Shown here piece by piece: positions 4,117 through 11,104 of a stretch of 60,763 bases of DNA. The stretch is from Actinomycetota bacterium (GTDB lineage Bacteria > Actinomycetota > Actinomycetes > Actinomycetales > Dermatophilaceae). Positions within the stretch are counted from its first letter, which is position 1; each line of letters opens with the position of its first letter. The stretch spans positions 1 to 60,763 of the forward strand of contig JBKPKI010000021.1 in assembly GCA_046731055.1 (NCBI GenBank), given 5' to 3'. The position numbers and the translations under genes were made by a program. The notes under the pieces are model-generated. The model did not search any database and had not been told where the DNA came from. It saw only the letters and a list, made by a program, of their open reading frames with translations.

Positions 4117-4326
4117 ATGGCTGACCACGTGTACCGCGTGACGGAGGTCGTGGGGACGTCGAGTGAGAGTCTGGAAACGGCGATCCGGACGGGCATCGAC
4201 AAGGCGGCGGAGACGGTGCGCGGCCTCGATTGGTTCGAGGTCACCGAGATCCGCGGACACCTCGAGGACGGCGGGGTCGCACACTTCCAGGTGACGATGA
4301 AGCTCGGGTTCCGCGTCGGCGCTTAG
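4117..4326 (+). CDS. Dodecin (flavin-binding)
   Basis: 69 aa MADHVYRVTEVVGTS...LDWFEVTEIRGH...HFQVTMKLGF; AAGGAG RBS. Confidence 0.93.
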   Translation: MADHVYRVTEVVGTSSESLETAIRTGIDKAAETVRGLDWFEVTEIRGHLEDGGVAHFQVTMKLGFRVGA

Positions 4327-5072
4327 TTGATGAGCAGCGACAGCATGGTGGCGATCACGACGGTGTTGAGGATCCAGGCCATGACGCTCTGGAACGTGAC
4401 CATGCGCCGCATGGATGCCGAGGTCACCGTGGTGTCGGTCGTGCCGAACGTCACCGAGCACCCGGCCGCCAGGTAGACGTAGTCGGAGAAGACCGACTCT
4501 GCGGGACCCGCGAATGCCAGCCCACCCTCCTCGACGTCCTTGCGGGCGTAGTACAGGGCGAAGCTGAAGGTGATGATCGCGATACAGCTGAGCACGGTGA
4601 TCCCGGCCATGGTGAGCACGAGGACCGGGACGTCCTTGCGATTGACGACGGCGGTGACGACTGTGATGAACGCCCAAATGGCGATGCTGACCGGCCAAAC
4701 GATGCTGCCGCCGCCGGCGAGGAGCCAGCGCATCCACGCCGACCGCGGCAGTGGTGTCCCCAGGATGCGGCGAACCAGCTCGGCGTGGTCCGCCCTTCGG
4801 AAGGCCCGGGCGCCCAGCCACAGGTAGGCGATCGCGAATCCGACCCAGGCGATGAGGTTGGAGCCGTAGTCCTCCTCGAGGGCCCGTTGAGCCGGGGTTA
4901 GCTGCTTTCGAAACCCGAACTCCTGGTAGAGGCTCTGGAGGATAGCGAACAGCAGGCTGAAGAGGAGCCCCAAGCCGATCGCCGCCCAGAGCCGGAACAC
5001 GTCCGAGCACGACCGGGGGATCGGCGCCGGCCGCTTGTCTGGAGGCGGGAAGACGATGTACTTCTCAGGCAT
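4323..5072 (-). CDS. DUF1345-like membrane protein
   Basis: Several TM segments; C-terminal FSDYVYLA...TFGTTDTTVTSASMRRMVTFQSVMAWILNTVVIA; GAGGA upstream of ATG 5072. Confidence 0.75.
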   Translation of the reverse strand: MPEKYIVFPPPDKRPAPIPRSCSDVFRLWAAIGLGLLFSLLFAILQSLYQEFGFRKQLTPAQRALEEDYGSNLIAWVGFAIAYLWLGARAFRRADHAELVRRILGTPLPRSAWMRWLLAGGGSIVWPVSIAIWAFITVVTAVVNRKDVPVLVLTMAGITVLSCIAIITFSFALYYARKDVEEGGLAFAGPAESVFSDYVYLAAGCSVTFGTTDTTVTSASMRRMVTFQSVMAWILNTVVIATMLSLLIN

Positions 5073-5130
5073 GGCGTCCTCGGTGGGTGGGTAGCCGAAG
5101 CCATTGTCCTGCGTCCCCCGCTGTAACCGG

Positions 5131-5187
5131 CGAAAGGCCAACTTTGGTCGTTTTGGCGCCGTCATAACGACCAAACTTGGCCTTTCG
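5131..5187. repeat. Long palindrome (22-bp arms, 1 mismatch)
   Basis: CGAAAGGCCAACTTTGGTCGTT (5131-5152) / AACGACCAAACTTGGCCTTTCG (5166-5187). Confidence 0.85.
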
Positions 5188-8366: not shown

Positions 8367-9355
8367 CCGGCGCCGCTCGGCGGCCAATCCGGGGGTACCT
8401 CCCGCTTGCGGGGCCGATCCTTCTGGAAATCGAGGAGCTTGGCCCGCAGGCGGTCGGTGTCCTCGGCGGTCCAGCCGTGCTGCTCCAGCCACGCCTCGGC
8501 GCCGCCCTCGCGGTCGAGAGCCCGGACGAGTAACCGCATGGTCTCGGCCTGCGGTTGCTGCTGGGCGACCGTCTTGCCGTCGAGGTTCGCCGCGTACGCC
8601 GGGTGTCGAGCGAGCCGCTCAAGGATGCGCGGGACCCGCTCGGCGGACGCCGCGTAGTCCGCGACGACTGCCTCGTGGGTGACCCCGGCCACCAGCAGGG
8701 CCAGCCCGACGATGGTGCCTGTCCGGTCCTTACCGGCCGCGCAGTGCACCACCACGGCGCCCTTCGCCTGTGCGATCGCCCTCAACGCGGCCACCACCGA
8801 GTCCGGACGCTGGGTGAGATACCCCAGGTAGTGCCCGGACCAGTAGGCGTCGTGCTGGCGGCGCTCCTCCGCCGAGCCCCGACTACGTCCGGTCTCGCCG
8901 TGGCGCCGCTTTTTCGGACGACGGACTCCGGCCGCCGTCCCGAACTTGCGGTCGCTCTCCCATGGCAGATTCCGTTCCCCGGGCGGAATGCCGGTCTCCT
9001 TGGTGTCCTCGGTGTAGAGCGTGTGGTGGTGCAGGCGCACGCCGCGCTCGGCGACCATGGGGCCGTCGCCCTCCTTGGCAACCTCGACGAACGTGCGCAG
9101 GTCGACGACGTCGGTCACTCCGAGGTCGTCCACGAGGTGACGGACCGACGCCGGCGCGAGCTCCTGGAGGTTGTCGGACCGGATGAGCCGACCCGCGACG
9201 ACGGACCGCCCGTCGGTCGTGGGAAGCCCGCCGACGTCACGCATGTTGTCGACGCCGTCGAGCTCGATCCAGCGCGGATCGTGGCTGAGGGCGACATCCA
9301 TCGCTGGGACTGGGGCCGGATCGTCGGCCGCCTGGGAAGCAGCGGTGGACGTCAC
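8348..9355 (-). CDS. Tyrosine-protein phosphatase (PtpB/Y_phosphatase3-like)
   Basis: NMRDVGG, VVDLR and P-loop VHCAAGKDRTG. Confidence 0.9.
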   Translation of the reverse strand: MTSTAASQAADDPAPVPAMDVALSHDPRWIELDGVDNMRDVGGLPTTDGRSVVAGRLIRSDNLQELAPASVRHLVDDLGVTDVVDLRTFVEVAKEGDGPMVAERGVRLHHHTLYTEDTKETGIPPGERNLPWESDRKFGTAAGVRRPKKRRHGETGRSRGSAEERRQHDAYWSGHYLGYLTQRPDSVVAALRAIAQAKGAVVVHCAAGKDRTGTIVGLALLVAGVTHEAVVADYAASAERVPRILERLARHPAYAANLDGKTVAQQQPQAETMRLLVRALDREGGAEAWLEQHGWTAEDTDRLRAKLLDFQKDRPRKREVPPDWPPSGAGQSSPA

Positions 9356-9379
9356 GCCACGACCCTAACGGGCACCGGT

Positions 9380-9414
9380 GAGGGCCCCGGGAAGTATGAG
9401 TTCCCGGGGCCCTC
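9380..9414. terminator. GC-rich stem-loop, probable intrinsic terminator
   Basis: GAGGGCCCCGGGAA-N7-TTCCCGGGGCCCTC perfect 14-bp stem; no U-tract. Confidence 0.6.
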
Positions 9415-9551
9415 TGCGACGGGCCGGAGCACGCCGCTCGATGTCCGAGGTTTGACCCTCGCACAGACCCGAAGTTCCGCGAATCTCGTTCTCCCGAAAG
9501 AGAATTGGACCCCTCAGATCTTCGGTCCGCCTCCGGCGAACCGGCGGCGTG
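9380..9551 (-). ncRNA. Candidate structured non-coding RNA or cis-regulatory leader (unassigned family)
   Basis: The minus strand has three UUCG-capped hairpins, G-U pairs that favour this strand, a closing helix CACGCCGC/GCGGCGUG, an upstream TTGCGG-N18-TAGAAA promoter-like pair and a terminal hairpin. No credible ORF. Confidence 0.55.
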
Positions 9552-9627
9552 GGGATATTTCTAGGCCTTCGCGAACCGGTCCCGCAAGGGCTTCATCCGA
9601 ACTTTTTCGGACCGATTTGGGTCGCTC

Positions 9628-9651
9628 CGGCGTGTCGCGCTCGACACGCCG
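9628..9651. promoter_or_regulatory. Palindrome CGGCGTGTCG-N4-CGACACGCCG (GACAC-containing; possible WhiA-type site)
   Basis: Perfect 10-bp inverted repeat upstream of the candidate ncRNA promoter. GACAC is the known WhiA core; the assignment is inference. Confidence 0.4.
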
Positions 9652-9889
9652 ACCGACGTCCTGGACCTGGTCTCCCGCGAGCGCGGCGGATGGCGGTCTG
9701 CGCCCGGTTCGCACCGATCGCGCTCGCCGCAGGGCAGCAAGCCTGGCTGGTGCGCGTGCCCTGATCCCTGGTCGCCATCCCCTGCTCGCCGCCCTCGCCA
9801 ACGTCCCGGCGAGCACCTGGGGCTCGCGCACCCCAGCGCGGTACGGGGTCACGACGCATACCGGTTGAGGGCGCTGGGAGACTGGAGCA

Positions 9890-11104
9890 GTGCCGAGCGC
9901 TCTTCCCGACGGCGAACCCGCCCCGACCGCTGGCGACCTGCCCGGACCGGCTCTGGAACGTCTCGGCGGGGCTCCGTTCGGCGTCTACCTGCACGTCCCC
10001 TTCTGCACGGTCCGGTGCGGCTACTGCGACTTCAACACCTACACACCTGCCGAGGCGGGGACCGACCTCGGTACGTATGCGTCGGCAGCCCTTGGCGAGC
10101 TCGACCTGGCTCAGCGGGTCCTCGGCGACCGGGCTCCAGTCGTTGACACCGTCTTCGTCGGAGGCGGAACCCCGACCCTGCTGCCGTCCGGCGACCTCGT
10201 GCACGTGTTGCGCGGCATACGGGACCGGTTCGGCGTGGCCCCCCACGCCGAGGTGACCACCGAGGCCAACCCGGACTCGGTCTCAGCCGCCTCGCTGGCC
10301 GCGTTGGCGGCGGGCGGGTTCACGCGGGTCAGCTTCGGGATGCAGAGCGCCGTGCCCCACGTGCTGCGCACACTCGACCGAACCCATGACCCGGACAACG
10401 TCGCCCGGGCGGTTGGCTGGGCCCGTGCTGCGGGCCTCGACGTCAGCCTCGACCTTATCTACGGGACGCCCGGGGAGTCGCTGGACGACTGGCGGCGCAG
10501 CCTCGACGCCGCGGTCGCGCTCCGACCCGACCACGTGTCCGCCTACGCGCTCGTCGTCGAGGAGGGCACCCGACTTGCGGCCCGGGTTCGTCGCGGCGAG
10601 GTCGCGCCGCCGGACGACGACGACGAGGCCGACAAGTACGAGCTGGCCGACCAGGTGCTGACTACCGCCGGCTACGCCTGGTACGAGGTGAGCAACTGGG
10701 CCTCGGCGCCGCGCTTCCGGTGCCGCCACAACGAGGCGTATTGGTCCGGCGGCGACTGGTGGGGCGTGGGACCGGGCGCGCACAGCCACGTCGGGGGCGT
10801 GCGGTGGTGGAACGTCAAGCACCCCGTCGCGTATGCGTCGCGGCTCGCCGGGGGAGTCTCGCCGGCCGCCGCTCGAGAGGTCCTCACCGCCGAGCAGCGC
10901 CTCGACGAGTGGGTCCTGCTCGGCATCCGCCGGGCCGCGGGCATCCCCGTGGACGGCCTGGAGCCGGCCGGTCGCGACGCGCTCGCGGCGTTGATCACCG
11001 ACGGGCTGGTCGACGGGCGGGCCGCCGTCCGGGAGCGGCAGGTGCGCCTGACCCGGCGGGGACGGCTGCTGGCGGACACGGTCGTGCGCCGGCTCCTGGG
11101 CTGA
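9890..11104 (+). CDS. hemW: Radical SAM heme chaperone HemW (HemN-like)
   Basis: YLHVPFCTVRCGYCDFN (CxxxCxxC), GGGTPT, EANP, YEVSNW, CRHNEAYW; lepA-hrcA context. Confidence 0.95.
   Translation: MPSALPDGEPAPTAGDLPGPALERLGGAPFGVYLHVPFCTVRCGYCDFNTYTPAEAGTDLGTYASAALGELDLAQRVLGDRAPVVDTVFVGGGTPTLLPSGDLVHVLRGIRDRFGVAPHAEVTTEANPDSVSAASLAALAAGGFTRVSFGMQSAVPHVLRTLDRTHDPDNVARAVGWARAAGLDVSLDLIYGTPGESLDDWRRSLDAAVALRPDHVSAYALVVEEGTRLAARVRRGEVAPPDDDDEADKYELADQVLTTAGYAWYEVSNWASAPRFRCRHNEAYWSGGDWWGVGPGAHSHVGGVRWWNVKHPVAYASRLAGGVSPAAAREVLTAEQRLDEWVLLGIRRAAGIPVDGLEPAGRDALAALITDGLVDGRAAVRERQVRLTRRGRLLADTVVRRLLG

Follow-up and report, generated by a model that had tools for sequence, protein, structure and literature searches.

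The RNA locus and its surroundings

The window, by which we mean the entire 60,763-nt stretch analyzed (contig JBKPKI010000021.1 of an actinomycetotal genome, Dermatophilaceae), contains on its minus strand a predicted non-coding RNA of about 178 nt (9372..9551; ends inferred), which was matched by covariance model R2 with an E value of 4.4e-17. This RNA, extending from about 9551 to 9372, is larger than the span 9380-9551 given in a first-pass annotation of the same DNA. It is located between a downstream gene for a tyrosine-phosphatase family protein (PF13350; 8348..9355, minus strand) and a divergent, hemW-like gene for a radical-SAM protein (9890..11104, plus strand), both assigned by domain search and considered as context only. 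The phosphatase gene, which is probably leaderless, possesses its own -10 element (TAGGGT, 9362..9367, minus strand), as had been noted earlier, and this element occupies the spot where many family members have a convergent promoter-like element. Upstream of the RNA, the imperfect promoter TTGCGG-N18-TAGAAA described previously is present at 9587-9558, with the -35 element TTGCGG at 9582..9587 and a non-canonical -10 element, TAGAAAT, with a T at the seventh position, at 9557..9563. It is preceded by an A-rich, putatively UP-element-like tract (9600..9608) and by an inverted pair of WhiA-type boxes (GTGTC and GACACGCC; 9628..9651), which match the WhiA consensus and lie 60 and 49 bp upstream of the -35 element, all on the minus strand. 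A DNA search involving 61 genomes revealed conservation from 9651 to about 9377, and the conserved unit thus begins 100 bp upstream of the span annotated initially. The WhiA-type boxes, the terminal loop CUCAUAC and a second genomic copy of the RNA had not been noticed at that stage.

In many relatives, an MFS transporter gene that is absent from the window lies between hemW and the RNA (PF07690 by domain search on L002, L002:1846-3102; equivalents in L003, L005-L007, L009, L011, L013, and L015), indicating that this interval gains and loses genes. Ordinary genes elsewhere in the window include those for a mycothiol-S-transferase (PF04978; 3477-4016, plus strand) and a DUF1345 protein (4323-5174, minus strand).

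The stretch 9380-9551 has a folding energy of -97.9 kcal/mol on the minus strand, where none of 200 shuffled sequences was as stable (z = -5.4), as compared to z = -3.9 for the plus strand. These values agree with the structured minus-strand RNA proposed in the first-pass annotation, all motifs of which were found on that strand, and one-sided G-C/G-U and U-A/U-G changes in orthologues point to the same orientation. The structure of the window's subfamily was assessed with an alignment of 11 orthologues made from sequence only, in which five local hairpins were 98.5% paired and 8 pairs showed two-sided change. These comprise the UUCG-capped 5' hairpin P1 (9528..9549; 100% paired and invariant), a long arm with internal loops and the cap UUCUCU-UUCG-GGAGAA (9469..9525; 98.8% paired, 2 pairs with two-sided change), a hairpin with a GUCAAA loop (9443..9462; 96.4% paired, 2 pairs with two-sided change), a fourth hairpin with a UUCG-type loop in the orthologues (9416..9437; 98.9% paired), and the terminal 14-bp hairpin P6 (9380..9414), all on the minus strand. 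The stem of P6 covaries, and its near-invariant 7-nt loop CUCAUAC (9394..9400), kept under varied closing pairs, is the signature of the family and its predicted pairing surface.

The search for homologues and covariation, which had been suggested as a check, had a split outcome: the five-hairpin fold covaries, and the secondary structure proposed initially, including its long-range helices, is mostly wrong. The hairpins CCGG-UUCG-CCGG and UUCUCU-UUCG-GGAGAA and the 14-bp terminal hairpin hold in the 11 orthologues. The proposed closing helix (9551-9544/9437-9430) was 76.6% paired, and one of its pairs is disrupted in 10 and another in 8 of the 11 sequences; the inner helix UCUGAGG/CCUCGGA was 94.8% paired, yet without compensatory change; and the CGCGGAAC hairpin was only 84.4% paired. 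The earlier overall fold was 27-50 kcal/mol less stable than the five-hairpin fold in all 11 orthologues, and pairing and energy together led us to reject it. We consider the locus to be, almost certainly, a genuine non-coding RNA gene.

A covarying RNA family in the Actinomycetia

The genome containing the window, which is 57% complete, harbors at least two copies, namely, that in the window and C137:5637-5815. A terminal-hairpin pattern retrieved 122 loci from the first 21 of the 64 parts of the genome collection, corresponding to an estimated 370 or so overall. According to record titles, these loci belong to Actinomycetota (Dermatophilaceae, Nocardioidaceae, Propionibacteriaceae, Frankiales, Pseudonocardiales, and others), apart from two archaeal chance matches, and no Streptomyces, Mycobacterium or Corynebacterium title was among them in the third of the collection scanned. 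Metagenomes contributed 119 loci in 19 of 64 parts. The covariance model matched 49 of 150 evenly drawn genomes of the class (Actinomycetia) at an E value of 0.01 or better; 11 of the 19 weaker matches inspected were non-members, mostly generic terminators, and their removal, along with the omission of one uninspected match, resulted in a corrected count of about 37 of 150. The order-level pattern was too strict, with 5 of 151 genomes matched, 2 of them real, and the second copy of our own genome (C137) missed. The loose phylum-level pattern matched 111 of 201 genomes, where nearly all of the 150 matches listed, another 25 being outside the listing, were chance occurrences without a hairpin; two that were checked (G532 and G206) are not members. 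Among unpublished genomes, G008 contributed only to the tally of the 61-genome DNA search and, with one hairpin (L012), to pooled counts, and G469, G513, G406, G378, and G441 only to the phylum-level tally, so that none of our conclusions rests on them. No family member was found outside the class among the genomes searched, and no match indicative of a mobile-element origin was obtained in the viral contigs, plasmids or phages searched. The archaeal pattern matches L088 and L151, as well as L031, are due to chance, and the pooled set of 155 hairpins includes these three.

Family members span lengths from 65 to 450 nt, with clusters at about 65, 90, 130, and 180 nt, and most measure about 180 nt. 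The 65-nt members consist of one small hairpin and the terminal hairpin, the long arm being absent, whereas the common 180-nt form contains a 5' hairpin, a long arm with a three-way junction (P3 and P4), and then P5 and P6. In 50 long-form sequences aligned without structure guidance, P6 was 98.6% paired, and the loop of P4 pairs with that of P5 to form a kissing-loop pseudoknot (L4-L5), in which 96.3% of the cells were paired and all 6 pairs showed two-sided change. This is illustrated by one column that is split between 24 U-A and 21 C-G pairs, and held-out loci contributed a new kissing-loop covariant, GUGAAG/CUUCAC, seven times. Unguided RNAalifold on alignment A2 recovered only P4 and P6; the other helices were positioned manually and align less well, as for P3, where 33% pairing was obtained in a poor alignment. 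In the window's subfamily, simple hairpins replace the kissing-loop domain.

Members of the family end in a covarying hairpin with the near-invariant loop CUCAUAC, which is retained whichever pair closes it (A-U, G-C, U-A, or C-G) and on varied stems. Lineage variants are CCCUUAC/U in family f31 and CUCAUGC in family f35. Generic terminator loops in these genomes vary freely, whereas CUCAUAC is fixed; as this motif was built into the first search patterns, its constancy rests on the model search and a looser pattern.

Neighboring genes are unrelated between loci, the flanking genes occur in all four orientations (30, 24, 20, and 17 of 91 loci), and in 37 of the 91 loci an open reading frame lies downstream of the RNA on the opposite strand. 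The RNA is thus not a cis-acting leader, and a riboswitch was rejected on the same grounds, together with the phosphatase gene's own -10 element. Tandem copies each carry their own promoter. The conserved promoter, the covariation, the unrelated neighbors in all orientations, and the separately promoted tandem copies lend good support to a stand-alone, trans-acting, uncatalogued structured RNA, in agreement with the independent small RNA (sRNA) envisaged initially. Several copies adjoin tRNA or housekeeping genes such as orn, tig-clpP, and thrS (L029, L144, L048/L064/L107, L182, and L017/L044), and across these loci the insertion sites vary by lineage.

A search of positions 8500-10500 of the window against Rfam 15 gave 9 weak matches, none at the gathering threshold, and in 20 family loci only an adjacent tRNA was above threshold, which is consistent with the novelty proposed at first. 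A tRNA was discarded because there is no cloverleaf and ARAGORN calls neither copy in this genome, with one 93-nt mis-call among all loci. The same applies to 6S RNA, since in the window and the long-form alignments the ends are not paired in a single long hairpin with a central bubble. No description of the family was found in the literature searched, which for motif surveys and WhiA ChIP papers comprised the main texts. The main texts of two motif-discovery papers (PMC11109978 and PMC8632094) contain neither 'Actino' nor a related term, and their supplements could list the motif; the main texts of two WhiA regulon papers mention no small RNA.

Promoters, transcripts, and a convergent element

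Upstream of 164 of 191 hairpins, TTG-N17/18 is followed by a -10 element, mostly TA[GC]A[AC]NT, as determined with an expression designed after inspection of the data. The -10 form of the family is TA-N4-T rather than TA-N3-T on both strands, the T occurring at position 7 in 118 of 129 promoters and never at position 6, and it may be a mark of activator-dependent or alternative-sigma promoters. Boxes were counted at the 162 loci with enough upstream DNA. A WhiA box (GACACGC or its reverse) was present in 102 of these promoters, as compared to a background of 1.6-4.9%, at 37-39, 46-49, and 58-60 bp upstream of the -35 element. The motif GACACGCC corresponds to the WhiA consensus in excerpts of PMC13473873 and PMC3781837, and according to PMC10243135 WhiA boxes are functional in both orientations and with differing spacing. 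With this box near them, in one orientation or the other, the family's promoters resemble those of the WhiA/WhiB regulon.

DnaA-type 9-mers with at most 1 mismatch, scored against what we take to be the DnaA box consensus, were found in 44 of the 162 promoters (background, 1.2-2.2%). Their TGTGG cores are located at 41, 53, 63, 74, 85, 96, and 106 bp, almost all in the same orientation, and boxes of both types, WhiA and DnaA, show helical phasing at about 11 bp. Neither box type was detected in 30 of the 162 promoters. Among 79 held-out loci, 50 had a WhiA box and 16 a DnaA-type box. This genome encodes WhiA, four WhiB-family proteins, and DnaA. The same DnaA-type 9-mers fill its dnaA-dnaN interval and dnaA promoter (G000:C64:6300-9700), a region that includes dnaA, a dnaA promoter with a WhiA box and tandem DnaA-type boxes, and an origin-like dnaA-dnaN interval with about eleven boxes, and the promoter of a whiB-family gene carries a WhiA box as well. 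From these motifs, we infer that WhiA and DnaA may control the RNA promoters. At nine loci (L044, L051, L061, L139, L145, L147, L150, L154, and L157), the WhiA boxes are preceded by direct repeats of GTCAC, similar to what is presumably a site of the MtrA type, MtrA being a third cell-cycle regulator. At another locus (L208, genome G192), three long RNAs follow one another in tandem, each about 250-350 nt in length, with a middle part unlike that of the others and a separate array of DnaA-type boxes in front, and a partner-type hairpin comes after them.

Traces of expression came from four soil metatranscriptome runs of a single study, available as contigs that give neither strand nor level. 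One 180-nt contig of a relative ends right after P6 with an A-rich tail (depth, 4.2), which fits the 3' end of a discrete RNA. Another contig, of 252 nt and identical to the window, extends through P6 as far as the phosphatase gene (depth, 2.1) and is read-through or DNA. These runs cover flanking coding DNA at 99-100% identity, with no contig over about 9440-9551, such gaps proving nothing. A search with locus L115 gave no match, and a transcript of the antisense strand was not seen in these strandless contigs.

Of 204 hairpins, 50 had GACAC at a constant distance downstream of P6. Read on the opposite strand, into the hairpin, this corresponds to GTGT[CT]-N27-29-TA, which was found at 47 of 201 hairpins (45 with exactly N28); 12 more had the element with the box reversed, giving a total of 59 of 201, as compared to a background of 0.19% and to 0 of 201 in a same-strand control. 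Similarly, 111 held-out hairpins included 21 convergent elements (19 with exactly 28 bases) and 5 reversed ones, 26 altogether, and the control gave 0 of 111. The -10 of the convergent element is the family's own -10 form, and the element retains its internal spacing even when 40-50 nt away from the hairpin, as would be expected of a promoter.

The transcript predicted from this element would fold into a hairpin with the loop GUAUGAG, the exact 7-base complement of CUCAUAC, although the loop partly closes in one of four folds. Partner-type hairpins also occur as separate genes with their own stems and the exact complementary loop, placed convergent, divergent, tandem, or far relative to the long RNA. 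Cultured carriers of the family include Nocardioides iriomotensis (L133), with the cis arrangement, Flexivirga endophytica (L083), with divergent genes, and Knoellia locipacati (L075). In all, a predicted partner element was found in cis at 50 of 236 hairpins, and the stand-alone ones number up to 32; G-U asymmetry in these 32 was 6 forward and 4 reverse, in a set that includes a few misfiled long RNAs. In f31, where the loop of the long RNA is CCCUUAC, a separate hairpin 4.1 kb away has the predicted loop GUAAGGG, and, given the resemblance between the stems, this joint change may have arisen through a recent duplication. A convergent element is absent from the window copy and present in the C137 copy, about 55 nt downstream of the hairpin there. 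Within the window's family, the element was detected in only 3 of 11 hairpin-bearing genomes by a pattern that may miss some, and in genus g134, where 11 of 41 matches were not fetched, 7 of 14 genomes were flagged. In f35, the short form occurs alone in 5 of 5 genomes, with the loop GCAUGAG. The corresponding loci (L186, L187, and L203-L205) contain a short partner-type hairpin with a U-rich tail, which at L186 lies between htrA-like and PAC2-family genes.

Candidate functions of the predicted RNA pair

Given that the two loops complement each other exactly and that each is conserved in independent genes, RNA-RNA pairing is the simplest reading. Our leading, still tentative, explanation is that the long RNA serves as a stable decoy that binds the short hairpin RNA loop to loop (CUCAUAC-GUAUGAG) under the control of cell-cycle regulators. 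Both the long RNA and the short RNA from the convergent promoter would be transcribed, WhiA/WhiB and DnaA would set their ratio, and the long RNA would capture the short one by a 7-base-pair loop-loop kiss. Copies arranged in cis could anneal to a complete duplex and be degraded, and either the free short RNA or the free long RNA would act on another, invariant partner linked to growth or division. The short RNA of this genome would originate from the C137 copy and not from the window. Considering the short-only f35 genomes and the few elements in the window's family, each part seems able to survive alone, so that mutual pairing by itself cannot explain a loop fixed throughout the class, and a further partner is likely. 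The rRNA operon and tmRNA of 5 genomes contained no TATGAG, and no rRNA or tmRNA column changed together with the f31 loop in 5 genomes.

The foremost of the alternatives, itself unlikely, is that the RNA would be a decoy or scaffold for a protein, either RNA polymerase, in the manner of Ms1 and 6S RNA, or another protein, with the loop as the protein site and the convergent promoter tuning the RNA level. The prevalence of members of about 180 nt, their compact fold of a 5' hairpin, a long arm, and two 3' hairpins with a kissing loop, and a class-wide fixed loop that suits a single conserved partner would all be accommodated, and Ms1 (RF02566; MTS2823, scr3559) likewise has short 5' and 3' hairpins (PMC9130861). 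However, neither Ms1 nor 6S RNA was matched; RF02566, whose model derives from mycobacteria-like sequences and can miss distant members, gave no match in the window, in 20 family loci or in this 57%-complete genome. The Ms1 synteny (HAD-IB hydrolase, Fic/oxidoreductase) is missing as well, no HAD family being named among the 110 of 182 predicted neighbors scanned, many of which had no NCBIfam hit, and the Ms1 candidates of the same genera are placed at another conserved locus in part of PMC9130861. Moreover, the 65-nt members lack the long arm, and the separate genes with a complementary loop would be left unexplained. With no RF02566 match, no HAD-hydrolase neighbor, and minimal 65-nt members, the polymerase binder of 6S/Ms1 style suggested by the first-pass annotation is not favored. 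More doubtful is mimicry by P6 of the anticodon arm of CAU tRNAs (initiator Met, Met, and Ile2), by which a synthetase, a modifying enzyme, an anticodon nuclease, or the ribosome would be decoyed while the partner loop presents an AUG codon able to pair with these tRNAs. CUCAUAC shares 6 of 7 bases with CUCAUAA, the loop of the four genuine CAU tRNAs recorded at the loci retrieved, one family member was mistaken by ARAGORN for tRNA-Met(cat), AUGAG is common to GUAUGAG and GCAUGAG, and the f31 loop carries CUU, another real anticodon. Position 38, however, is C or U and never A; the anticodon-loop consensus of tRNAs has U at position 33, where f31 has C, besides a different anticodon; the cloverleaf is absent; and by our own estimate a generic anticodon-loop pattern is fit by chance in roughly 6% of cases. 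The match to the CAU anticodon loop may be the most interesting lead.

Still less probable is an ordinary trans-acting, base-pairing sRNA, for which 6C RNA is a precedent, with the loop seeding on mRNA start contexts of the type GU-AUG-AG. The loop is complementary to such contexts and begins with what we take to be a YUNR U-turn motif, the promoters carry boxes of cell-cycle regulators, sibling copies differ in length, and CcnA of Caulobacter (excerpts of PMC8959179) offers a second precedent. Against this reading, perfect loop complements were not enriched over a reversed control in 4 of 5 genomes (the exception being G216) or in 3 of 4 f31 genomes, and among 39 sites inspected no orthologous target recurred across lineages. 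With gene starts from a rough caller of our own, only 3 predicted starts in this genome have the 7-mer at the AUG, at least one of them leaderless-looking, and there was no match in the leaders of dnaA, whiA, or three whiB-family genes. More speculative again is an RNA-only cell-cycle switch, in which a WhiA/WhiB-induced AUG-loop hairpin would tie up the CAU-anticodon (initiator) tRNA or its partners, and the long, pseudoknotted anticodon mimic, under DnaA/WhiA boxes, would neutralize it; if true, this switch would couple translation initiation to replication and division. Very improbable, finally, is that the DNA itself is the functional unit, as a bidirectional terminator between facing promoters or a titration site for DnaA/WhiA, with the transcripts as by-products. 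The stems are nearly all Watson-Crick and hence strand-neutral, GGCCCC-type stems are common terminators in these genomes, the DnaA-box arrays resemble an origin, and hairpins are found alone. In contrast, covariation of the kissing loop and of the G-U-biased arms is that of an RNA, the loop is fixed while generic terminator loops vary freely, and an A-tailed transcript end was seen once.

The decoy pair has partial parallels among known systems. In ColE1 RNA I/RNA II and kindred pairs, convergent short and long structured transcripts carry complementary 7-nt hairpin loops. Our family shares the complementary 7-nt loops, the short and long structured RNAs, and, as predicted, their convergence, but it is chromosomal and multicopy, has no match in the plasmid or phage collections searched, keeps its loops fixed instead of diversifying, and overlaps at the 3' end. 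In the type VIII pair SdsR/RyeA of enterobacteria (PMC8610362), as predicted for ours, the two RNAs, one short and one long, come from opposite strands, the long one masks the short one by antisense pairing, and their regulation is opposed. There is, however, no sequence relation to that pair, and in our family the predicted overlap amounts to one terminal hairpin, the partner is also a separate gene, and the promoters carry WhiA/DnaA-type boxes. That 5 of 5 f35 genomes have solely the short form speaks against an obligate toxicity like that of a type VIII toxin-antitoxin system. Our family shares with Ms1 and 6S RNA the character of an independently encoded, structured actinomycete RNA, a long arm between short hairpins, and a 6S-like length of 180 nt; it differs in its several copies per genome, its range of 65-450 nt, its three-way junction and kissing loop, and the missing central bubble. 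CcnA is likewise a non-coding RNA tied to master cell-cycle regulators, but according to PMC8959179 it acts on the ctrA and gcrA mRNAs, whereas our searches yielded no conserved mRNA target, and the two families are unrelated.

Taken together, this is a covarying, pseudoknotted RNA family without an Rfam entry, present in roughly a quarter of the sampled Actinomycetia genomes. It has probably been overlooked because the model genera Streptomyces, Mycobacterium, and Corynebacterium do not seem to carry it. As its promoters display boxes of the same types as those of dnaA itself, the family offers a concrete candidate for an RNA component of the circuits run by WhiA/WhiB and DnaA.
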